A stretch of 44,178 nt of DNA from a virus (IMGVR_UViG_3300045988_014135); one strand, 5' to 3'. Counted from the stretch's first letter, positions 203 to 41,040 are shown. Numbers and translations are program-made. Notes: generated by a model not told the origin, from the sequence alone.

Positions 203-1252
203 TTAAGCACCGACGCCAGTTACCAGGAAGGCAATAGGTACATGCTTACGGTCAACAACACGGTTCCAGTTGGAGGCGTTCGCCAGGTCCTGCCAGGAAG
301 CAGAGCGGGCGATAGTCTCGGTCCCGTTGCCAGTGATTACCGCGCTGGTGAAGCTGTAACCAAACGGATGCAGCAACCAGGTCTTACGGGTCCACAGGGT
401 TTCAACGCCACCACCGTTACCACGAGACGCTTCGCGTTCGTATTCCAGCGGGTTAGACGGGTTGCCCTCGCCGTAACCGATAGCACCGTTACCGAAGATG
501 ATGGAGATGAACTTACGGCTCGGGCTGGGGCCGACTACGGTCATGCTGTCGTCAACAATCACGCGGTAGCCCTGGTAAGTAGCAAACATGGTGTTGTTAT
601 CGGCGTCGCGGATGAAGTCGATAAGCTGCTGTTTACGTGCCTGCGCATATACGAAGCTGTGCATCGCGATAGCGCCCAACACTTCACCGCCGTTGCCCAT
701 CAGCGCATCACCCATAGTCTGGGTAGCGTCGATGAACGCGCCTGCGTCGAAGCCCAGAGTAGCGGACACGTCGATTACCATGTCATTCTGCTCGTGGTAA
801 GCATCGGTGGCGGCTACGTTGTCGTTGTACAGACCGAGCGCGGTAGCAATCAGACGGCGTTGTGCCTGACGCTGCCAGAAGTTATCCAGACGGGACGCTA
901 CGGATTGCAGCGGGTTCTGGCTGGTCAGTTCAACAGTCAAATCCGCCTGGCCGAAACCTTCGTTCAGGTAAGCTACGCGAACGTCCATCTCACCGGTTTG
1001 CACGTTACGCGGGGTGGCGACGTCCTGATATACATCGTTCGAGTAGTTCGGCTCGATAGAGGTATCAATCGCTTTCCAGTACGGCAGAACAGCTTTGTTG
1101 GACGGGCCGTTTGCGATAGCGGCGGCGTACGGAGTCTGGGTCAGAATACCTGACTGGAAGAACGCGGTTTTCTCTACCGGGTCCTCTGTCATGTAAGACA
1201 GAATGACCGATTCTTTACCAGTTACGATATCGCCGATAGTAGTAATTGCCAT
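203..1252 (-). CDS. major capsid protein (candidate)
   Basis: 349 aa ORF directly downstream of the scaffold gene, stop/start overlap at 1252; position and size typical of a major capsid protein; no motif verified. Confidence 0.65.
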   Translation of the reverse strand: MAITTIGDIVTGKESVILSYMTEDPVEKTAFFQSGILTQTPYAAAIANGPSNKAVLPYWKAIDTSIEPNYSNDVYQDVATPRNVQTGEMDVRVAYLNEGFGQADLTVELTSQNPLQSVASRLDNFWQRQAQRRLIATALGLYNDNVAATDAYHEQNDMVIDVSATLGFDAGAFIDATQTMGDALMGNGGEVLGAIAMHSFVYAQARKQQLIDFIRDADNNTMFATYQGYRVIVDDSMTVVGPSPSRKFISIIFGNGAIGYGEGNPSNPLEYEREASRGNGGGVETLWTRKTWLLHPFGYSFTSAVITGNGTETIARSASWQDLANASNWNRVVDRKHVPIAFLVTGVGA

Positions 1253-1956
1253 TATTTTTTCCTCAGGGCTTTAAGTTGCCGTTCAAATTCGGCAGGGTTC
1301 GATTCGTACAGAGCGATACGCTCCGCTTCACTCATGTCTTTAAACGCTGGTGCGGCCCCGCCGCCTTTGCTACCGGAAGCCCCGCCGCCGGAAGCTGCAT
1401 TTGCTTTAATCAAATGCGAAAACGCTTTGTGTTCGCGCAGGTACTTGCGGAACTGTTCCGGGTCAGTTGTGATTACGTTGCCGTCTGCACCAACAAACTT
1501 AGTAACCACGTCATCGCCTTCAAACTCAGTCTTAACGAACGGAGCAAGAATGTCTACTGCTTCCGGTGTGATGAAATCACCTGCGAAAGAGCCTAACACC
1601 GCTTTACGTTCGCTGCCGAGGATGCGCTCTGCCATTTTGGAGATGCGACCATCTTTCTCGGCTAACACCGGGTCATACTGGCTACGAATCGTCTTTTCGA
1701 ACTCGTCCATCTTACCGGCGGCTTTTAGCGCCTCCTGGTGCGCGCGCTGACGTTCCTCTTCGGCCTCTCTTGCTTTACGAGCGGCTTCTTTCTTCTCGTT
1801 CAGCAATGCTTCCTGGTTAGCCTTAAGCCCGGCAACTTCTTTCTCAATCAGCGCCTGCACTTCTTCGGCTGTGTACATTTTAGGAGCGTCACCGCCACCT
1901 GATTTATCTTCTGCCCCAGCTTCTTCCTGGAGCGGATAACGTAAAAAACGATTCAT
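1252..1956 (-). CDS. head scaffolding protein
   Basis: Charged, Ala/Glu/Lys-rich coiled-coil-like protein upstream of the capsid gene; start set at internal ATG 1956 (MNRFLRYP...) with a purine-rich stretch upstream; ORF track extends to 2010. Confidence 0.55.
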   Translation of the reverse strand: MNRFLRYPLQEEAGAEDKSGGGDAPKMYTAEEVQALIEKEVAGLKANQEALLNEKKEAARKAREAEEERQRAHQEALKAAGKMDEFEKTIRSQYDPVLAEKDGRISKMAERILGSERKAVLGSFAGDFITPEAVDILAPFVKTEFEGDDVVTKFVGADGNVITTDPEQFRKYLREHKAFSHLIKANAASGGGASGSKGGGAAPAFKDMSEAERIALYESNPAEFERQLKALRKK

Positions 1957-2038
1957 AGTCAGTATGTCCCCTGGACGTTGGAACCCGGGCCACCCGGATT
2001 TACATGTCAAGAATAAATTATTCCAACATGCAAGGCAA

Positions 2039-2284
2039 CTATTCCAGAATATTCCTCACATAATCCTGCAACTCGTAAACCTGCTGCCGTAGTTTTCGCC
2101 CGCAGTCAATACTCATAACATCAGCAGACAGGTCTTCGTCAGCATCAGCTTTTGCGTCACTAAATTTACACGGTTCAACCATCAAAGACGCTTTCACGGG
2201 CGGCAATGTGTTCGGAGTGTATTCCGGTGCGCAGCCCGTTATCCCAATTATTACAGCCGACAGGAATAATTTATTCATGGTCAT
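2039..2284 (-). CDS. o-spanin (Rz1-like outer-membrane lipoprotein)
   Basis: N-terminal signal with lipobox LSAVIIGITGC, Pro-rich mature part with Cys residues; start overlaps the 3' end of the upstream i-spanin-like gene. Confidence 0.6.
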   Translation of the reverse strand: MTMNKLFLSAVIIGITGCAPEYTPNTLPPVKASLMVEPCKFSDAKADADEDLSADVMSIDCGRKLRQQVYELQDYVRNILE

Positions 2285-2627
2285 ATCCTGAGATGTGATT
2301 GGCGTTATCGATGGCGGCCTGTTTCAGCTTAACGCGTGCTTCATCGAAAGTGCAGACATTGCGGCCAGGCGTCCTGACGTACTTAACGACTTCCTGCGTA
2401 ATGGTTACGGTGCGGGCAGCACCCTGCTGTTCAGCGACGGCGGCACGGGTGTCGTTTTGTTGCTGCCGTTGTGTTTTCTTCGCTAGCTCCGCCTGTGCTT
2501 TCTGCTGTTGCTGCGAAACGAGATTCGCCCGGCCTTCGTTCCAGCCGCTGCGATACTGGTAGATTCCGTAGCCGTATGTCAGGAGGATGAAACATGCTCC
2601 AGCTACGACAGTTGCGTTAAGATTCAT
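2271..2627 (-). CDS. i-spanin (Rz-like)
   Basis: N-terminal TM helix (VVAGACFILLTYGYGIY) followed by a Gln/Ala-rich coiled-coil periplasmic domain; overlapped by the lipoprotein gene as in Rz/Rz1 pairs. Confidence 0.6.
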   Translation of the reverse strand: MNLNATVVAGACFILLTYGYGIYQYRSGWNEGRANLVSQQQQKAQAELAKKTQRQQQNDTRAAVAEQQGAARTVTITQEVVKYVRTPGRNVCTFDEARVKLKQAAIDNANHISGYDHE

Positions 2628-2878
2628 GTTTCCCCTTTCTCGATAAGTAAAGCCCCGCCTTAAAGCGGGGCGCTAGTCCTTATCATTTAAACATAGAAAC
2701 GGCGTAATCTCAGTAAACCAGTTACTTTTTACACAAGCAATAGAGTATGGCCCTTCCGAACGCGTCAGCGTAACTACACTCAGGACTTACGTCCCGCTCC
2801 GTTACCTGCCCGCGCCGCGGTCGCTTGCTCATACTTCACAAGCTCAGGTGGAGCTTATCATATTTTCAGTGAAAAGTC

Positions 2879-2894
2879 AACTATTCGAATAGTT
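2879..2894. repeat. perfect 16-bp palindrome AACTATTCGAATAGTT
   Basis: Read directly; lies in the 375-bp intergenic region upstream of promoter 2947..2975; half-sites match the AATAG/CTATT promoter dyad. Confidence 0.8.
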
Positions 2895-2946
2895 TATTCC
2901 AACGTTTACAATTGAGTGGAATAACTGGAATACGTAAATAAATAGT

Positions 2947-2975
2947 TTGCGCGCACCAACATAATAGGGTACTAT
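2947..2975 (+). promoter_or_regulatory. sigma70-type promoter TTGCGC-N17-TACTAT with dyad AATAGGGTACTATT
   Basis: -35 2947-2952, -10 2970-2975, 17-bp spacer; dyad 2963..2976; AGGAG RBS and ATG at 3003 follow. Confidence 0.6.
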
Positions 2976-3002
2976 TCAGTTAACTTAAACAGGAGATGAT
3001 AA

Positions 3003-3524
3003 ATGGTTACTACAGTAATTACTTTCCCTGCGTATGTAGGGGCGAAAATATGCAGGGCTAAAAATGATGTTCGCTACTATTTGAACGCTTTTTACATAGA
3101 CCCTGAAGGATTGATAGTGTCTACGGACGGTCATAGATTGTTCGGCGACAATGTGAAGACCAACGTTGAGAAAGGGACTCTCATAGACATCAAAGGGAGA
3201 GAGCCTTCTAAATTTAACTACGCGGAGGTAAACCACGACAACGGCAGTGTATCTTTCTATGACGATAATCGTGCGCTTATATGTACACTTCCGGTAGATG
3301 TTGTAGAAGGAAACTTTCCTGACTGGAGACGCGTGGCGCACATCACACCGGGTGTTGTCGATAGTATAGGGTTCACTCTGCGCTATTTGGCAGACGCGTA
3401 CAAGATTTCTAAGGCATACAAAAATGAAATTGCTCGTTTCGATTTCCAGGACCAAACCAGAGGATGCAAAATACAATTTTCAAACACGGCCTTTATGGTG
3501 TTAATGCCTGCGCGATTTAAATAA
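3003..3524 (+). CDS. truncated beta sliding clamp (DnaN) homolog, domain II plus partial domain III
   Basis: NDVRYYLNAFYIDPEGLIVSTDGHRLF matches the DnaN segment DVRYYLNG...ATDGHRLA as recalled; FPDWRRV ~ FPDYRRV; C-terminal FMVLMPARFK ~ YVVMPMRL; only 173 aa; own promoter, AGGAG RBS and terminator; opposite strand to flanking genes. Confidence 0.6.
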   Translation: MVTTVITFPAYVGAKICRAKNDVRYYLNAFYIDPEGLIVSTDGHRLFGDNVKTNVEKGTLIDIKGREPSKFNYAEVNHDNGSVSFYDDNRALICTLPVDVVEGNFPDWRRVAHITPGVVDSIGFTLRYLADAYKISKAYKNEIARFDFQDQTRGCKIQFSNTAFMVLMPARFK

Positions 3525-3528
3525 AACT

Positions 3529-3552
3529 AAGGCCCCTTACGGGGCCTTTTAT
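3529..3552. terminator. bidirectional intrinsic terminator (AAGGCCCC-TTAC-GGGGCCTT + T-run)
   Basis: 8-bp GC-rich stem, 4-nt loop, T-run on plus strand; between convergent genes 3003..3524 and 3552..4010. Confidence 0.7.
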
Positions 3553-4010
3553 CATTCTGGCTTAGTGACCTTCGCCGCTTTACTGACAGCCTCTACACCA
3601 TCGGCATCAGTAACTTTAACGAAGTATTCACCTGCTGCGTTAACCGTCAGAGACAAAGCCTCTTCCGGGACGTTTACCACTTCCTTCCCGTCTTTGTACC
3701 AGGTCAGCACATACGGCGCTTTGCCCGCCTTAACTTCGACGGTGATGGTGGCGCTACCGTCGACCAGCTCGGTGTCTTTCGGTTGCACAGAGAAATACAC
3801 ATCGCCAGCATCTGCCAGATACGGAATCTCATAAAGCATACCAGCAGCAGAGAGTGCGATACCGGTCTTGTCCGCATACGGCATCTCGTCTACAGGTGTA
3901 CCTAGTACACTTTCATCTTCAACGTAGGTTACGTTCTCACCAGAACCGGATACACGGGCGTACTGGACTACGCGACGCGACGGCACATCAGTTACTTTAA
4001 AAAAGCCCAT
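3552..4010 (-). CDS. Ig-like domain structural protein (possible head decoration)
   Basis: C-terminal pattern YVLTWYKDGKEV...EYFVKVTD resembles bacterial Ig-like domains; sits in the head module. Confidence 0.4.
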   Translation of the reverse strand: MGFFKVTDVPSRRVVQYARVSGSGENVTYVEDESVLGTPVDEMPYADKTGIALSAAGMLYEIPYLADAGDVYFSVQPKDTELVDGSATITVEVKAGKAPYVLTWYKDGKEVVNVPEEALSLTVNAAGEYFVKVTDADGVEAVSKAAKVTKPE

Positions 4011-4013
4011 AAA

Positions 4014-4637
4014 CTAAACCTCTTTCATTGAGTTAATCTTACGTAAGACGCCTTCGAAAAGGCGTGGGTCTATGCTATCGCAAAGGCCTTTGTATTCATA
4101 TGCTAATTCAATTTTTCTATGAAACCAGGCTACATGTGCCTCTTGAGCGGTTTCGTAAGCGCCTATTTGTTCAGATACACAATCCACGGATACTTGGGCG
4201 ATGAATCTTTTCTTTTGTTTATGAAAATGTACCCCAAGCGGGTGTTTGCCTCGAAGAGCGTCGTGGGCTGTGAGGAAAGTGTTAAGGGATTTGGGGATGA
4301 AAACACAGTTAGAAGCGTCATAAACCTTATTTCCTGGATTCAGTAAATCCTTATCTATCTGCCACCCAGGTACATAAAAATTATCAAACCAGACCTTGAA
4401 ATTACTGAACACCAACCAATCGTCCGACACGCGGCAGCCTATATAGGTTCTGTTTCTTTGCTGCCATTTCTTGTCGTAGCACCTCTTTAACATGTTCTTC
4501 CATCCGGCATAGGACGCTATATGCACCCCTCCGTGACTTATCGGTGAAACATCATTAATACCAACCCCAAAAACAATTCCCATATTAAATCCTATAAGAA
4601 AACCCCATGAAGATTGGTCGATGCCAGAGATAGGCAT
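4014..4637 (-). CDS. HNH homing endonuclease with AP2-like DNA-binding domain
   Basis: WKNMLKRCYD...YIGCRVSDDW...QIDKDLLNPGNKVYDASNCVFIPKSLN (HNH-type) and GVHFHKQKKRFIAQVSV...GAYETAQEAHVAW (AP2-like); free-standing between head genes; start uncertain. Confidence 0.55.
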   Translation of the reverse strand: MPISGIDQSSWGFLIGFNMGIVFGVGINDVSPISHGGVHIASYAGWKNMLKRCYDKKWQQRNRTYIGCRVSDDWLVFSNFKVWFDNFYVPGWQIDKDLLNPGNKVYDASNCVFIPKSLNTFLTAHDALRGKHPLGVHFHKQKKRFIAQVSVDCVSEQIGAYETAQEAHVAWFHRKIELAYEYKGLCDSIDPRLFEGVLRKINSMKEV

Positions 4638-19582: not shown

Positions 19583-20083
19583 ATGTTAGAACAGTTCTTA
19601 AAATTACTGGAGCGTTTCGTAGTTGCCCATGAACTGATTGCGGCGAACAGTGCGAAACAAGTTGTTCATGCCGCCGCGCCGCTGGAAGTAGAGACGGTAG
19701 TGTATACCGAAGAATCAGCTTCCGAGTGCGAAGAAGAAACAACAAAAGAAATCACGGTTGAAGGTGAAGACGTCGTTGACACTAAACCTGCGGAGGAAGA
19801 GAAGCCGAAACGCAAGCCGCGTAAAGCTAAAGTAGAGGAACCAACGCCAGAGCCGGAAGAAGAGAAGGAAGAAGTCGATTACCAGTCTCTGCGTGACCAG
19901 ATTCAGGCTATCGACGATGCAATTAACGAAGGCCCGAGCAATGCCGCGTGTGACGATTCGGATGAACTGCTAGAAGAGTTCACCGGCAAGAAGATGAAGA
20001 TTGCCGCGATTAAAGACGAAGACCTGGCCGAGTACCTGGAACGCCTGACGGCAATCAAGAACAAGTATTTCAAAGAAGAATAA
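19583..20083 (+). CDS. highly acidic protein (function unknown)
   Basis: 166 aa, long Glu/Asp runs (EPTPEPEEEKEE), one basic patch KPKRKPRKAK. Confidence 0.5.
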   Translation: MLEQFLKLLERFVVAHELIAANSAKQVVHAAAPLEVETVVYTEESASECEEETTKEITVEGEDVVDTKPAEEEKPKRKPRKAKVEEPTPEPEEEKEEVDYQSLRDQIQAIDDAINEGPSNAACDDSDELLEEFTGKKMKIAAIKDEDLAEYLERLTAIKNKYFKEE

Positions 20084-32871: not shown

Positions 32872-33963
32872 TTAACCGTCCACATTAAAATCAATACGAG
32901 TGATATATTTACTGCCCCACGCAGAATCCGCTTGGGGGATAGTCGCGTAACCGTCAACAGCCTGAACGTTTACCACAGAGCTGTCGGAGTATGTAATGTC
33001 GATGCTTGTTGCGCCGTTCATTGCTACTTTTGCCGATGCCGCTTGGCGGCCCACAGCAGACGAATCTGTGATTATTGGCGACGTGGCAAATGGTTTTTTT
33101 TCAACCTGAGCGGACGCAACTGAAAAAGAAGATGCTCCATCCGATGCGTAAGACGTGAGTCTGGTAGACGTCATAGACGGTATGCTTGCTACCGCTATGG
33201 AGGATAGTGCAGAACCGTCCCCTGTCGCGATTGTGGTAGTTGAGCATAGAACCCGCCCAGTGCCTAACCCGCCTATCTGGTAGTTAATAGAACCGCCTTC
33301 TGGCGGAACACGCCCAACGGCAACACCATCAATAAATGTTAGAGGCCATTCATTAGTGGCTGATTGCACAAGATTGCCGTTGCGGTTGATGTAATAAACC
33401 TGCGGCCCGTCGTACACAATGCGGCTATCCAGGGCGGACGCCAGAAGGTTAATCGGCGGGTATCCTGCGGGCCCTTCATCGCTCCAGATGCGCGGGAACG
33501 TAGTCTCATAGTTCGCGTATATTTTCAGGAAACTACCCAGACAATCCCCGTAGCAACCATACAAATCTGGCAGATTCTTAGTAAGACATGTGTCTTCCTG
33601 AATTGCTGTGCGCTCTGCTGTAGCCGTAAACGTAATGACCCAGTTCTTGCCGTCGTCTGTGCTATCGCTAATATCAGACGTAATAAGAACCTGGTGGTCT
33701 TCGATACCTAAACCCGTATCGTGCGGCATGATAAATGAAGACGCACCGCCGTCTATGTTGTTCAGGAAGCTATAGAACGCCTGGCGACCGAGCGATGATA
33801 CGACCAGGGTAACGCTAATCGGCACCGGTTCGAAGTATGTATCACGCCCCTGACGAGGCACACCGCCCTGAACTTCTGTACGCCAGATATTACTCCCTCG
33901 CGTTTGGGAGTACCCCTTCGACACTATTGGTCGAAGGGACATAGGGAATCTCAAATCACTCAT
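32872..33963 (-). CDS. minor tail protein (distal tail candidate)
   Basis: 363 aa immediately downstream of tape measure; by position. Confidence 0.4.
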   Translation of the reverse strand: MSDLRFPMSLRPIVSKGYSQTRGSNIWRTEVQGGVPRQGRDTYFEPVPISVTLVVSSLGRQAFYSFLNNIDGGASSFIMPHDTGLGIEDHQVLITSDISDSTDDGKNWVITFTATAERTAIQEDTCLTKNLPDLYGCYGDCLGSFLKIYANYETTFPRIWSDEGPAGYPPINLLASALDSRIVYDGPQVYYINRNGNLVQSATNEWPLTFIDGVAVGRVPPEGGSINYQIGGLGTGRVLCSTTTIATGDGSALSSIAVASIPSMTSTRLTSYASDGASSFSVASAQVEKKPFATSPIITDSSAVGRQAASAKVAMNGATSIDITYSDSSVVNVQAVDGYATIPQADSAWGSKYITRIDFNVDG

Positions 33964-36660: not shown

Positions 36661-37077
36661 CTACTTTTCCTGCAATTGGTGAAGCTGTTCATTGTGGAAA
36701 ACAACAACGTGTTCAGCGAGTCGTTTATATTGTGAGAAAAGAGTATTCAGGTTCTCTTTATTAAATTCATCGTCGAGACTCCAACCGTTAACCAGTTCAA
36801 GCGCTAACTGGCGGTTAAGGTCCGTTGCGGCGTCTTCCATCTTGATGTTGTATTCCGAGAAATCTTTCAGTTCCTCGCATTTATCGCGAAGCGGTTTCAA
36901 TTTACCTAATGCCGCGCGGTACGCAAGTGTAAACGCCCTCATAGCTTTAACAGCAACGTCTGCCTCCGGTGAAACAACGTTCAGCCACTCCCCTGAATCG
37001 GTGCCGTCTTTCAGTGGTATCGGCATACGGGCGCCTTTTTCTGCCTCAGCTTCGTAATAAAAATCAGAAAGTTTCAT
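36661..37077 (-). CDS. tail assembly chaperone (G-like)
   Basis: 138-aa acidic protein between major tail and tape measure genes. Confidence 0.55.
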   Translation of the reverse strand: MKLSDFYYEAEAEKGARMPIPLKDGTDSGEWLNVVSPEADVAVKAMRAFTLAYRAALGKLKPLRDKCEELKDFSEYNIKMEDAATDLNRQLALELVNGWSLDDEFNKENLNTLFSQYKRLAEHVVVFHNEQLHQLQEK

Positions 37078-37185
37078 TCTTTAATCCTTTGGTTAAGAGG
37101 TTACAGGTTAATGGTAAATGCGCCAGACGGGAACCACCCGCTTTTCGTGTGCGACACTAGGCGCAAAATTATTCTATCACATTAC

Positions 37186-37214
37186 TTGCGCACCCCAACA
37201 TAATAGGATACTAT
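37186..37214 (+). promoter_or_regulatory. promoter TTGCGC-N17-TACTAT with dyad AATAGGATACTATT
   Basis: -35 37186-37191, -10 37209-37214; dyad 37202..37215; near-identical to early promoter 15906..15934. Confidence 0.65.
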
Positions 37215-37255
37215 TCACTTACACCAACAATGTTAACTCAAACAGGAGCTACACC

Positions 37256-37447
37256 ATGACAGGTATTACTATGTTCTTCTTAATCATTATCGTTTTAGTT
37301 TATTTTATCCCGTTTTTAGTGGCCCATATGCGCGGACATAAAGCGAAACTGGCGATATTCATGGCTAATCTGTTTCTCGGCTGGGTTCTGCTGCCGTGGG
37401 TATTTATTTTAATCTGGGCTTGCAACTCGAATGTCAAAGAGAAGTGA
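37256..37447 (+). CDS. superinfection-immunity-like small membrane protein
   Basis: 63 aa, two TM helices; YFIPFLVAHMRGHKAK...NLFLGWVLLPWVFILIWA resembles the Imm_superinfect family pattern as recalled; start at ATG 37256 after AGGAG. Confidence 0.5.
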   Translation: MTGITMFFLIIIVLVYFIPFLVAHMRGHKAKLAIFMANLFLGWVLLPWVFILIWACNSNVKEK

Positions 37448-37485
37448 GCTAGTATAGGACAAATCCTAAACACGAGGAAGTAAGC

Positions 37486-38616
37486 ATGGCCCGGAAGAAA
37501 ATAACCGACGAACAGTTACAGGAAGAATTGAACGCCGGAACAAAGATTATCGACATATCCCGTAAATACGGCATCTCAGACCGAGTTATTCGTATCCGTA
37601 AAGCGAAGCTGGCGAAGAAAGGCGTAGGTCACGGTCGTGACGTTAGCCATCTTGTCCCGGACGGCTACAAAATTAAAGGAACGTCGTCACTGGTGGACGA
37701 GTTCGGCAACACTAAGTTGCAATGGGTTAAGACAGACACCGACGCCGAACGTCAGGTCGAGTTAATGAAAGCCGTGATCGAAGGAATGAAGTCGGAGATT
37801 ACGCCAGTTGCGCCGGTTAAAGCGACTCGAGCCAAACGCGACGATAAACTACTCAATCTGTACACGGTATCTGATTTCCATCTTGGTATGCTGGCCTGGG
37901 CTGACGAGAGCGGCGACGACTGGGATATGAAGATTGCGGAAGACCTGTTCTCCCGATGGTTCGATGCGGCGTTTCAGAAAGCACCAGATGCAGGAACTGG
38001 GGTTATTAACCTGCTGGGTGACTTCGCGCACTTCGATAGTCTGGATGCGGTTACGCCAGCGAGTGGTCATGTTCTTGATGCGGACACTCGTTATCAGAAA
38101 CTGGTCCGCTACATGATTCGTATGGTACGCCGTGTTGTTGACATGGCGCTGGTTAAGCATAAATCTGTTCGCTTGCTTATCGTGCAAGGGAACCACGACG
38201 AAAGCGGAATGATTTGGTTAGCTGAGATGTTTAGTACGCTGTACGACAATGAGCCGCGTGTGTTCGTCGATACGTCGCCGGATGTTTACAAGATGGTCCA
38301 ACACGGCAAAACTACGCTGTTCTTTCACCACGGGCATAAGGCGCGATTCGACGCTATCGAACCGGTAATGATTGCCAAGTTCCGTAAAGCGTTCGGCGAG
38401 AGTGTTTACAGCTACGCCCACGTAGGCCATCTGCACCACCAGAAGATTGTAGAAAGCCGTAACATGATTGTTGAGCAACACCGCACCTTAGCGGCTAAAG
38501 ACGCCTACGCCTCGCGCGGCGGATGGATGTCGGGCCGTAGTGCAAATGTAATTACTTATAGCGCCGAATATGGCGAGGTCGCACGTTTAACTATTTCACC
38601 GGAGATGCTGGGATGA
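37486..38616 (+). CDS. calcineurin-like metallophosphoesterase with N-terminal HTH-like domain
   Basis: Motifs DFHLG, GDFAHFD, GNHDE, HHGH, GHLHH; basic N-terminal segment ISRKYGISDRVIRIRKAKL looks HTH-like. Confidence 0.6.
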   Translation: MARKKITDEQLQEELNAGTKIIDISRKYGISDRVIRIRKAKLAKKGVGHGRDVSHLVPDGYKIKGTSSLVDEFGNTKLQWVKTDTDAERQVELMKAVIEGMKSEITPVAPVKATRAKRDDKLLNLYTVSDFHLGMLAWADESGDDWDMKIAEDLFSRWFDAAFQKAPDAGTGVINLLGDFAHFDSLDAVTPASGHVLDADTRYQKLVRYMIRMVRRVVDMALVKHKSVRLLIVQGNHDESGMIWLAEMFSTLYDNEPRVFVDTSPDVYKMVQHGKTTLFFHHGHKARFDAIEPVMIAKFRKAFGESVYSYAHVGHLHHQKIVESRNMIVEQHRTLAAKDAYASRGGWMSGRSANVITYSAEYGEVARLTISPEMLG

Positions 38617-39101
38617 AAGATATTGTGATTTTCGATTTAGACGGGACATTGGCGGATGGTACTCATCGTTTACACCTGCTGCCGAAAGATAACTACGGCG
38701 AAACCTGGGCGTGGAAGCCTTTTAACATGGCCTGCAAAGATGACGCGCCCATTAAAGATAACATCCACTTGTGCAACACGCTGTGGCATACCGGGATGAC
38801 CATAATCATCCTTACCGGGCGAAGCGACGACGCCGAGGAAGAAACTCGTGAGTGGTTACGTAAAAACAATGTCAAGTTCGACGTTCTGTTAATGCGCAGC
38901 AAGCACGACAACAGAAAAGACATCGTAATTAAAGAAGAGGTGTTACGTGCTATCGGGCTGGAGAGAATATTGTGTGCGTTCGACGACTCTCCAGCGGTAA
39001 TAAAGCATTTCCGCGGACTCGGTATAACCACTCACGCGGTTACTGAATACGACTGTAACGGGAACTCTACACACTTAAAATCACACGGGAGCGATAAATA
39101 A
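38613..39101 (+). CDS. HAD-family phosphatase resembling the T4 Pnk 3'-phosphatase domain
   Basis: VIFDLDGTLA nucleophile motif; IIILTGRSDD and RKDIVIKEEV parallel T4 Pnk VIFDVDGTLA / VVVSGRESG / RKDDVVKEEI as recalled. Confidence 0.55.
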   Translation: MKDIVIFDLDGTLADGTHRLHLLPKDNYGETWAWKPFNMACKDDAPIKDNIHLCNTLWHTGMTIIILTGRSDDAEEETREWLRKNNVKFDVLLMRSKHDNRKDIVIKEEVLRAIGLERILCAFDDSPAVIKHFRGLGITTHAVTEYDCNGNSTHLKSHGSDK

Positions 39102-39670
39102 TGGCTAAGGTAATTATTCTTAATGGCCCTGCGGGCTGCGGGAAAGACACACTTGCTATGGCGCTGGTAGAAATGGGCTTTGCGAAAGGAACTACCAGTT
39201 TCAAGAATCCAATGTTCAATATTGCTCGGGCAGCGTTAGGCCCGGATGCTTACCACGAATTTCTCGACGGCTACGACGACCGGGCACGGAAAGAAAAGCC
39301 AGAATGTTTCCTTAATGGGTTGTCGCGACGTCAGTTCATGATTGCTATCTCGGAGCAATTCATTAAGCCTGTACTTGGCAATGATTATTTCGGTAAGTAT
39401 CTCGCTGAAAACTTGCCTGACGGCGACGAAGTTTTTGTAGTGTCCGACGGTGGGTTTGCCAGTGAAGTTGCCCCTATCGTCGCCGCTGGGCATGACGTGC
39501 GAATCGTCCGCTTGCACCGAGACGGCTACACGTTTGACGGGGATAGCCGTGGCTACCTGTACGATATTGATGGGGTAGTATGCCATGACGTCGCCATCAT
39601 TCCTGGTGAGATTACATTAACCGCGGCCACGGTTGCCAATAGAATCCTGGGGATTTACCCAAATGCGTGA
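39101..39670 (+). CDS. P-loop kinase (dNMP-kinase-like; could be a polynucleotide 5'-kinase)
   Basis: Walker A LNGPAGCGKDT (GKDT as in T4 gp1 dNMP kinase as recalled); further blocks align loosely with T4 gp1. Confidence 0.5.
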   Translation: MAKVIILNGPAGCGKDTLAMALVEMGFAKGTTSFKNPMFNIARAALGPDAYHEFLDGYDDRARKEKPECFLNGLSRRQFMIAISEQFIKPVLGNDYFGKYLAENLPDGDEVFVVSDGGFASEVAPIVAAGHDVRIVRLHRDGYTFDGDSRGYLYDIDGVVCHDVAIIPGEITLTAATVANRILGIYPNA

Positions 39671-39839
39671 AGGCACAATGGGGACAATATACGTTATCCG
39701 CGTATATGACGAAGAATGGGATGAGTGGGTTGATATTTACGCCGTAGGTAGCAAGGAAGAGGCGACAAAAGAGATGACAGAACGGAGTGACAGAGGTCAG
39801 TTAACTAACTTCTACGAAATGCCATTCAAAAGTGAGTGA
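39663..39839 (+). CDS. small hypothetical protein
   Basis: 58 aa from ATG 39663 overlapping kinase stop; last cassette gene. Confidence 0.35.
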   Translation: MREGTMGTIYVIRVYDEEWDEWVDIYAVGSKEEATKEMTERSDRGQLTNFYEMPFKSE

Positions 39840-39870
39840 GAAAAAGGCCCCGAAAGGGGCCTTAGTTTTA
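39840..39870. terminator. bidirectional intrinsic terminator (AAGGCCCC-GAAA-GGGGCCTT)
   Basis: Between the plus-strand cassette and the convergent major tail gene. Confidence 0.7.
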
Positions 39871-41040
39871 TGCGTAGGTGATACGCTGGATAACAATAGA
39901 CGACTGGTACTGATTGCCGGTAGCCTGGCCTTCGATGGACTGAGTGATTGACTCTGGTCCGCCAATCTCAGGCGTAACCGCCGTAAGCTCTGCGCGTTTC
40001 AGGCTGAAAGACATAGCCCCGTTTACCCCCGCCAGAATAGAGTTAATCTCTACCTGCTGTTCGTTGATAAACTTCTGAATCATCGCCATGTCGTACAGCT
40101 TACCAGAGATGGAGAATGTGTTAGCTGCGCGGCCACGTTCCACGAACGCAACACTACTGTTGCCGAGTTCGAACTGCGCGGAAGCACCGTTGTCGTTGGT
40201 GATGGTCAGAGTATCGCAACGCAACGGCGTAGAACCGTCGAACACAGACACATCTACGGATGAGAACGGCTCATCGGTAAACGTCACCCGGGAGAAATCA
40301 GAACCTGCTGGCGGTGCAGAAAGAATTTCCTGACTCAGACCGATGAACGGGAAGCTGCCTGTCACCATCGCGTTTACGGCCTGTTCAATGGTGAAACCGG
40401 AGATTTCCACGCCTTTGGTCAGCATGTACGCGTCAAGGTTCCCGCACTGTCCTTTGAACCATGTCAGGATGGAGAACGTCTTACATTCGTTACCGGTTTC
40501 CAATTTATCGCCTGTTTTAGCGTCGGTGGTTACAGTCTCTGCTGTCAGCGTGTGCTGGATACCCGCACCCGTAACTACAAGAGCAGAAACCGCGGTCACG
40601 ATAAACGGTTTTGCGTTGTCGCCGGTTAAGTCGGTGAATGCAATCAGGTCGCCAACCTCTACACCGTCAGTAATGAAGCTACCGGCAGCGCGGGTGAATG
40701 TTTTACCTGCTGGAGCGACCGTAATTTCAGCACCCGTAATCTCTACCCCGTCCTGCCACGTAGAAGTCATAGCACCCGCAAGGAAATCATCCTGGCTACG
40801 TGAGCTAAGTTCGATGGCGTACTCCCCGCTAACCTGTTTGTTACCGGTGCGGATGGATGTGGTTTCTCTGCTGCCGTCGAGTTCGTTGGAAGTCAGCGCA
40901 TCGCGGGTTACCGCAGGAACACCGCCAGTGTTACGCAACGGCGACCAGACCGGGCTAGTCGGTGTTACGCCAGGGGTCACTTCCGCCACATAGAATTGCG
41001 CGGTATTCGCGCCCTTAAAAGGAGTTGTAGCCATATTCAC
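39868..41040 (-). CDS. major tail protein (candidate)
   Basis: 390 aa, last gene before the chaperone/TMP block in the leftward operon; by position. Confidence 0.5.
   Translation of the reverse strand: MNMATTPFKGANTAQFYVAEVTPGVTPTSPVWSPLRNTGGVPAVTRDALTSNELDGSRETTSIRTGNKQVSGEYAIELSSRSQDDFLAGAMTSTWQDGVEITGAEITVAPAGKTFTRAAGSFITDGVEVGDLIAFTDLTGDNAKPFIVTAVSALVVTGAGIQHTLTAETVTTDAKTGDKLETGNECKTFSILTWFKGQCGNLDAYMLTKGVEISGFTIEQAVNAMVTGSFPFIGLSQEILSAPPAGSDFSRVTFTDEPFSSVDVSVFDGSTPLRCDTLTITNDNGASAQFELGNSSVAFVERGRAANTFSISGKLYDMAMIQKFINEQQVEINSILAGVNGAMSFSLKRAELTAVTPEIGGPESITQSIEGQATGNQYQSSIVIQRITYA

Follow-up and report, generated by a model that had tools for sequence, protein, structure and literature searches.

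An Imm-type gene and a probable DNA- and nucleotide-metabolism operon in a mosaic island among the tail genes of a Kagunavirus-like genome

What function is served by a plus-strand gene cassette that lies inside the tail genes of a phage and runs against them? The question is raised by positions 37,186 to 39,870 of the viral DNA stretch IMGVR_UViG_3300045988_014135 (44,178 nucleotides; the whole of it is called the window here). An earlier note, made from the sequence alone, had described there a co-directional cassette between tail genes of opposite orientation, encoding an Imm-like membrane protein, a helix-turn-helix (HTH) phosphoesterase, a Pnk-like HAD 3'-phosphatase and a P-loop kinase, and had proposed that the three enzymes repair RNA. 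The description has held up: five plus-strand open reading frames (ORFs) were located between minus-strand flanks, and family, motif and residue matches agree with each of the domain calls. The function that we favour is a different one. The cassette is probably a Kagunavirus accessory island of mosaic build that is read in the direction opposite to the late structural genes and combines an Imm-type gene with an operon for DNA and nucleotide metabolism, not for RNA end-healing. The metallophosphoesterase (MPE)-HAD-kinase operon would be the same module as gp56-gp57-gp58 of the T1-like phage Rao1, with an unrelated Imm-type gene placed ahead of it.

Kinase, phosphatase and the RNA end-healing model

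The kinase gene (39101..39670, plus strand) encodes 189 amino acids (aa) that matched phrog_139, 'deoxynucleoside monophosphate kinase', at E 4.8e-46, whereas Pfam detected the P-loop only. Searches of the PDB sequences, both with the single sequence and with a profile, gave nothing beyond P-loop matches to AAA+ ATPases and adenylate kinases, and since these were indecisive, structure prediction was needed for this protein. The result that we regard as decisive was 48% identity over the full length to Rao1 gp58 (R1DNK; 184 aligned residues, E 1e-61). The protein was also homologous to the Kongming-triggering kinases of Webervirus VAC2 and phage KarlJaspers. In profile comparisons with hhalign, 76 columns aligned with T4 gp1, reaching into the substrate side, against 25 columns with the T-even Pnk that were confined to the P-loop. 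The fold corresponds to that of T4 deoxynucleotide kinase, and a Pnk-type 5'-OH polynucleotide kinase domain was not found in the protein. In an alignment of 34 homologues the LNGPxGxGKD P-loop, with G14, K15 and D16, was invariant, as were the motifs DGGF, RLHR and GDSRxY. Because of the full-length identity to R1DNK and the alignment with T4 gp1 beyond the P-loop, the sequence evidence places the kinase firmly in the deoxynucleoside monophosphate (dNMP) kinase clade.

Experimental work on the Rao1 trio covers the kinase only. R1DNK turns dAMP, dGMP, dCMP and dTMP into deoxynucleoside diphosphates (dNDPs), its deletion leaves less dATP in infected cells, and it sets off the Kongming (KomABC) defence; the toxicity by which it does so was lost in the K15A mutant (bioRxiv 10.1101/2024.12.20.629578). 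By analogy with what was shown for R1DNK, the window kinase would phosphorylate 5'-dNMPs to dNDPs, which the host nucleoside diphosphate kinase would convert into deoxynucleoside triphosphates for phage DNA synthesis. Since the window kinase is orthologous to the triggering kinases of Rao1, VAC2 and KarlJaspers, a phage carrying it is predicted to trigger Kongming and to be restricted on KomABC hosts unless it also carries an inhibitor, a prediction that is relevant to the choice of therapeutic Kagunavirus phages.

The gene ahead of the kinase (38613..39101, plus strand, 162 aa) encodes a PNKP-type HAD (DxDxT) phosphatase. Its product matched PF25109 HAD_PNKP at E 8.5e-21 (75 bits, cut-off 27.6) over profile positions 2-140 of 143, and its closest solved relatives by sequence were Pnkp1 (4xrp, 3.6e-7) and T4 Pnk (1ltq). 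Identity to the HAD domain of T4 Pnk was 27% over 154 aa, and every catalytic residue was retained: D8, D10, T68, K107 and D125 align with D165, D167, S211, K258 and D278 of the T-even Pnk (PseT), and R19, R70, D103 and D124 with its R176, R213, D254 and D277. The active site of T4 Pnk comprises the nucleophile Asp165, the acid-base residue Asp167, Ser211, Lys258 and the Mg ligand Asp278 (PMC3592404). Judged from these matches, the HAD protein is a genuine PNKP-family phosphatase and not a simple nucleotidase, and it stands alone, its neighbour not being a polynucleotide kinase. Its family and its intact active site suggest that it would most likely take 3'-phosphates off DNA ends or deoxynucleotides.

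The two proteins thus answer differently the question of enzyme class on which the earlier note had made its RNA model depend: the kinase falls on the side that refutes the model, and the phosphatase does not, being of the PNKP family. The alternative offered in the same place, a nucleotide-salvage module of dNMP kinase plus nucleotidase, came closer to the evidence as far as the kinase is concerned, but not in its second enzyme.

According to the RNA model, the three enzymes heal the 2',3'-cyclic-phosphate as well as the 5'-OH ends that anticodon nucleases or HEPN RNases leave, and sealing is done by a host ligase or a distant one. In bacterial Pnkp the role of the end-healing phosphatase can be taken by metallophosphoesterases. 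The HAD protein is a member of the Pnkp phosphatase family, its nearest solved relatives are RNA-repair enzymes, and the phosphatase of T4 Pnkp removes 2',3'-cyclic phosphates (PMC3592404). The kinase, however, is orthologous to a proven dNMP kinase and resembles Pnk at the P-loop only, and a pathway with an ATP-dependent ligase is unworkable without a 5'-OH kinase. Moreover, no ligase was found in the window or in complete relatives. None is annotated in the complete relative EcoPhCCP1, Pfam detected no ligase domain in the ten otherwise unannotated window ORFs of 152-418 aa (all window ORFs of at least 140 aa being accounted for), and in window ORFs of at least 180 aa the K.DG motif occurred in one tail protein only. 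Where a ligase gene does adjoin a comparable trio, in the Aeromonas podophage Aer_P220, it encodes an ATP-dependent DNA ligase among DNA nucleases. The phosphoesterase, for its part, is present without HAD or kinase in many phages, and its nearest folds are not those of RNA-healing enzymes (see below). RNA end-healing fails as an account of the cassette, also in its role as counter-defence, on three grounds: what the kinase is, the lack of a ligase, and a phosphoesterase that is separable; the kinase identity had by itself largely refuted it. We rejected RNA repair on the kinase and the ligase, and consider the model as a whole very improbable.

The HTH-metallophosphoesterase and the Imm-type protein

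The MPE gene (37486..38616, plus strand) encodes 376 aa, an N-terminal HTH joined to a calcineurin-like MPE domain, which match phrog_704 at E 1.7e-165, and the HTH-MPE is present in 2,054 of 50,697 phage records. A first homologue search gave only sequences at least 97% identical, which were unusable for a profile, whereas a representative search gave 35 homologues at 33-50% identity. In their alignment the motifs DxH, GD, GNH[D/E], H and GHxH were all present; D130, H132, G178, D179, N236, H237, H282, G314 and H317 were invariant, and H315 was found in at least 90% of the sequences. Profile searches of the PDB sequences produced weak HTH and Mre11/MPE matches only. In the predicted model (pLDDT 90, the predicted local distance difference test) an N-terminal three-helix HTH is followed by a beta-hairpin and a helix and then by the MPE core, which confirms the MPE fold, and the folds nearest to this model are DNA nucleases or generic phosphodiesterases; neither list of top structural matches included an RNA end-healing phosphatase. 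In comparison with Mre11/SbcD no match to the capping domain was seen, and no gene for a Rad50/SbcC partner was present in the window ORF inventory or in the annotated relatives. A specific kinship to Bxb1 gp47, the mycobacteriophage MPE/RDF (recombination directionality factor), was considered and rejected, the hhalign probability being 31% and the likeness limited to the motifs. The single precedent for the reading that we favour is the mycobacteriophage MPE Gp48, for which phosphodiesterase activity and disruption of the host's genomic DNA are described (PMC12287305). The HTH-MPE would most likely be a metal-dependent DNA phosphodiesterase or nuclease attacking DNA, probably that of the host.

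The same activities could also be directed at the phage's own DNA. The MPE as an exonuclease and the HAD protein as a 3'-phosphatase would then clean ends or nicks, which could be used by the phage polymerase, by recombination proteins or by a host ligase, and the kinase would be merely a neighbour. We regard such end-processing or repair as a lesser possibility, although it overlaps with the explanation that we prefer and sequence alone hardly separates the two. Against it, no source is known from which phage DNA would acquire 3'-phosphate ends, a gene for a Rad50/SbcC partner is lacking, and the tight linkage of the HAD and kinase genes, with overlapping start and stop codons, argues for a shared role at the nucleotide level.

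The first gene of the cassette (37256..37447, plus strand, 63 aa) has AGGAG upstream. Its product scored 51.6 bits against PF14373 (E 8.7e-14, cut-off 27.9), matched phrog_1039, 'immunity to superinfection', at E 1.4e-23, and is 33% identical to Bxb1 gp66, which is annotated as Imm-like; its likeness to superinfection-immunity proteins had thus been seen correctly. In the translation two hydrophobic helices can be recognised, at about residues 5-23 and 32-55. As its family annotation suggests, this two-helix inner-membrane protein would probably exclude superinfecting phages; a literature search found no test of exclusion activity for any Guernseyvirinae Imm member. In function the protein is not tied to the enzymes, since T1-like phages have the three of them but no accompanying Imm, which speaks against the idea that the unit joins exclusion with counter-defence.

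A mosaic module and its possible targets

The distribution of the genes shows which of them travel together. In Webervirus Solomon the same trio stands ahead of the lysis genes, in phage T1 the order is HAD-HNH-kinase, and Imm is absent from the T1-like versions. Aer_P220 (Autographiviridae; 1011-3993 of locus L012) has an MPE-HAD-dNMP kinase trio whose HAD and kinase are 59% and 35% identical to the window proteins, respectively, whereas no homology between its phosphoesterase and the window MPE was detectable by tblastn; genes for a 5'-3' exonuclease and an endonuclease VII precede this trio, and the DNA ligase gene mentioned above follows it directly. Among 80 kinase loci from IMG/VR, which are related to each other so that the counts are descriptive only, a HAD gene was found upstream on the same strand in 62 and the full trio in 24. 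The HAD gene was directly adjacent to the kinase gene in 30 loci, and in the remainder of the 62 the two were split by inserts of 0.7-2.2 kb. At the same locus Jerseyviruses have only Imm, MPE and a 76-aa ORF, to which HNH and Ant/Rha genes are added in some cases. These findings led us to reject an obligate four-gene system, HAD and kinase being missing from the Jerseyvirus locus and Imm from the T1-like phages. By sequence comparison, the island is a mosaic of three separable parts: Imm, MPE and the HAD-kinase pair.

Two further observations concern the HAD-kinase region. In T1 (L006, 3950-5536) the gene that separates HAD and kinase encodes an HNH homing endonuclease, and inserts of 0.7-2.2 kb are frequent at this place, in T1 as in many IMG/VR loci (L031-L074); for selfish elements this junction appears to be an insertion hotspot. 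The 76-aa ORF of the Jerseyviruses (L010, 4682-4912; L011, 4128-4358) matches only the C-terminal third of PHROG families of about 240 aa, one of them labelled ATPase, and looks like the remnant of a longer gene at the place where Kagunaviruses have HAD and kinase.

Several points weigh against reading the cassette as Imm plus an operon for DNA and nucleotide metabolism. The MPE remained below the Pfam gathering scores, with 22.2 bits for PF12850 (cut-off 27) and 18.7 for PF00149 (21.5), and in the Foldseek ranking the cyclic-nucleotide phosphodiesterase Rv0805 was on a par with Mre11 and DP1. Since nucleases of the Mre11 type leave 3'-OH ends, it is not obvious why salvage should need a 3'-phosphatase. 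The kinase was found without HAD in 18 of the 80 IMG/VR loci, and Dhillonvirus, Tlsvirus and Vibrio phages have the MPE by itself, as Jerseyviruses have it without HAD or kinase; the parts being separable, a single concerted pathway stays conjectural. For the Imm-type protein, the exclusion role is taken from the family name. Finally, Rao1 without its kinase had no measurable fitness cost in the laboratory (bioRxiv 10.1101/2024.12.20.629578), and given this cost-free loss 'salvage' may not be the selected function.

A different target would be the signals by which the host detects infection. In this case the HAD protein or the kinase would remove dNMP danger signals arising from host DNA breakdown, namely deoxyadenosine monophosphate (dAMP), from which the Kongming messenger is made, or m6dAMP, the signal that Metis and PUA-Cal-HAD sense, and/or the MPE would degrade cyclic-nucleotide messengers. 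Defences that sense dNMPs from host genome degradation are known, both dAMP-derived dITP and m6dAMP being sensed, and Kongming is blocked, through the depletion of dAMP, by T5 Dmp, a HAD phosphatase found together with phage dNMP kinases. The window HAD and Dmp have an N-terminal DLDGT-x5-HR motif in common; the linkage of HAD and kinase genes in 62 of the 80 loci, and the position of Rv0805 as top Foldseek match of the MPE, also fit such counter-defence. Beyond the motif, however, the likeness to Dmp is not sustained. BLASTP aligned 48 residues of the HAD protein with T5 Dmp (E 2e-4) and 101 with VPG01 Dmp (E 4e-6), and PF25109, which was matched by the window HAD, Rao1 gp57 and the Aer_P220 HAD, was matched by neither Dmp protein. 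The HAD protein was therefore rejected as an equivalent of T5 Dmp, the alignment being restricted to the N-terminal motif. Furthermore, Rao1, which has an orthologous HAD beside its kinase, shows full sensitivity to Kongming, from which T5 Dmp in trans rescues it, an argument that we down-weighted because Bas26 is likewise sensitive despite a functional Dmp. The HTH domain of the MPE is of the DNA-binding type, which speaks against this reading. None of the five cassette proteins had a hit to the PADLOC defence models at E 0.01 or better, a negative of little weight in that the library covers defence and not anti-defence proteins, and the NCBIfam scan was negative or uninformative. Taken together, we consider counter-defence by editing of pools or signals unlikely.

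Distinctly unlikely in our estimate, but of wider consequence, is a dedicated control of host-DNA breakdown products as the cell sees them, exerted by the HAD protein and a broad dNMP kinase, often with the HTH-phosphoesterase ahead. Such a system would remove or convert dAMP, m6dAMP and 3'-phosphorylated danger signals (Kongming, Metis, PUA-Cal-HAD) while feeding replication. If this were true, it would be a new type of metabolic counter-defence module, and Pnk-type phosphatases without a polynucleotide kinase would for the first time be given a physiological role.

Locus context, database labels and known systems

The MPE, HAD and kinase genes and an acidic 58-aa ORF (39663..39839, plus strand), which overlaps the 3' end of the kinase gene, have successive start/stop overlaps of 1-8 nucleotides (nt) (ATGA, TAATG, ATGCGTGA), and because of these overlaps they are taken as one operon. 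The 58-aa ORF is 95% identical to an annotated coding sequence of EcoPhCCP1 and is kept in some IMG/VR Kagunavirus loci; it had no match in Pfam, PHROG, PADLOC or NCBIfam.

The cassette had been credited with an early-type promoter of its own and a bidirectional terminator. A candidate sigma-70-type promoter can be placed at 37186..37214 on the plus strand, with TTGCGC (37186-37191), a 17-nt spacer and TACTAT (37209-37214), so that 37186, given before as the start of the cassette, is the first base of the -35 box. This register matches the consensus weakly and was not reported by a consensus scan, which in the cassette region found 6 hits against 4.4 expected, not above chance. In an alignment of the window with EcoPhCCP1, Jersey and SETP7, representing Kagunavirus and Jerseyvirus, both hexamers were nevertheless kept at fixed spacing. 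Because their position is conserved across genera while the spacer has diverged, the promoter is plausible; an early timing is conjectural. The terminator was found as described: a hairpin at 39844..39863, AAGGCCCC-GAAA-GGGGCCTT, with an 8-bp GC-rich stem, a GAAA loop and a T-run after the stem on each strand, lies between the stop codons of the 58-aa ORF (39839) and of the major tail gene (39868) and can serve both strands.

Both neighbours lie on the minus strand, at 36661-37077 the tail assembly chaperone and at 39868-41040 the major tail protein. The island interrupts the late structural operon of that strand: the major tail gene ends at the bidirectional terminator, and the chaperone and tape-measure genes resume 2.8 kb downstream of its end. 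Ahead of these genes there is a weak minus-strand promoter-like site, TTAACA-17-TAGTAT (37236 to 37208). The divergent intergenic region also contains a 28-nt block (37119-37146, TGCGCCAGACGGGAACCACCCGCTTTTC), a short hairpin followed by TTTTC, which differs at one base between Kagunavirus and Jerseyvirus while its surroundings diverge. It may be a regulatory site, an RNA element of the chaperone/tape-measure transcript or an antisense terminator.

In a megablast search the cassette matched 330 GenBank phage records, of which 48 cover at least 80% of its length. The top matches, at about 90% identity, were Kagunavirus (Guernseyvirinae) genomes of 41-45 kb, and the window, with 44,178 bases and every functional module present, is effectively a whole genome. 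EcoPhCCP1 has the same five genes annotated at the same site between chaperone and tail genes, and the MPE of phage fBC-Eco01 is 100% identical to that of the window. Elsewhere in the window the ORFs at 32872-33963, 4014-4637, 2985-3476 and 19583-20083 (363, 207, 163 and 166 aa) had no Pfam match at E 0.01; the first of them belongs to the tail module, and in EcoPhCCP1 three smaller genes take its place.

The cassette is already known: hundreds of deposited Guernseyvirinae and Drexlerviridae genomes have it annotated, and its kinase belongs to a characterised family. For Drexlerviridae, the same string of exonuclease, PNK and dNMP kinase genes is pointed out in a 2026 paper. In view of that paper and of the 330 matching records, the cassette cannot be called an undescribed accessory system, as it had been; it is real, but an ordinary accessory island of small value as a discovery. 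Its use lies partly in correcting labels. GenBank names the kinase inconsistently ('replication factor C large subunit', 'ATP-binding protein', 'phosphomevalonate kinase'), and the 'replication factor C/ATPase' labels are wrong. The HAD protein is entered as 'polynucleotide kinase' or 'acid phosphatase', of which the former misleads in that the phosphatase half alone is encoded. The MPE is found as 'DNA polymerase II small subunit', 'oxidoreductase' or 'serine/threonine phosphatase'. The HTH-MPE and the stand-alone Pnk-type phosphatase are very common phage enzymes that stand beside nucleotide pools monitored by newly found defences.

Among known systems, T4 supplies counterparts for several of the proteins. 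The Imm-type protein shares with the T4 Imm family (PF14373) the build of a small two-helix membrane protein, and its score exceeds the family threshold; T4 Imm is the longer of the two. T4 gp1 (PDB 1DEK) has 241 aa, against 189 in the window kinase, is only 18% identical to it and is annotated as inactive on dAMP and dCMP, whereas R1DNK, the orthologue of the window kinase, accepts all four dNMPs. T4 PseT and Pnkp1 have a homologous HAD domain with the catalytic residues in common. In T4-type Pnkp, however, kinase and phosphatase are fused, whereas the window has separate genes with the phosphatase upstream of the kinase; in contrast to PseT and Pnkp1, it has no Pnk-type kinase domain and lacks an RNA ligase as partner, and the kinase beside the phosphatase would act on mononucleotides. 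Mre11/SbcD, PolD-DP1, Gp48 and Bxb1 gp47 share the MPE fold and the full set of metal-binding motifs with the window MPE, whose family has an N-terminal HTH and a beta-hairpin module that are specific to it.

T5 Dmp and Dnk are likewise a HAD phosphatase/dNMP kinase pair of a lytic phage, with an N-terminal DxDGT-x5-HR motif in common with the window HAD. Dmp, a 5'-deoxyribonucleotidase, is nevertheless without a match to PF25109, and its likeness to the window HAD is limited to about 48 residues. The closest system is that of Rao1, in which gp56, gp57 and gp58 encode an HTH-MPE, a PNKP-type HAD protein and a kinase in the same order as in the window, with full-length identities of 45%, 54% and 48%, respectively, and with K15 of the kinase in the same GKD P-loop. 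The two differ in setting: in Rao1 the trio precedes the lysis genes, within the early/middle region, and lacks Imm, whereas the window trio is inverted within the tail block and has Imm ahead of it.

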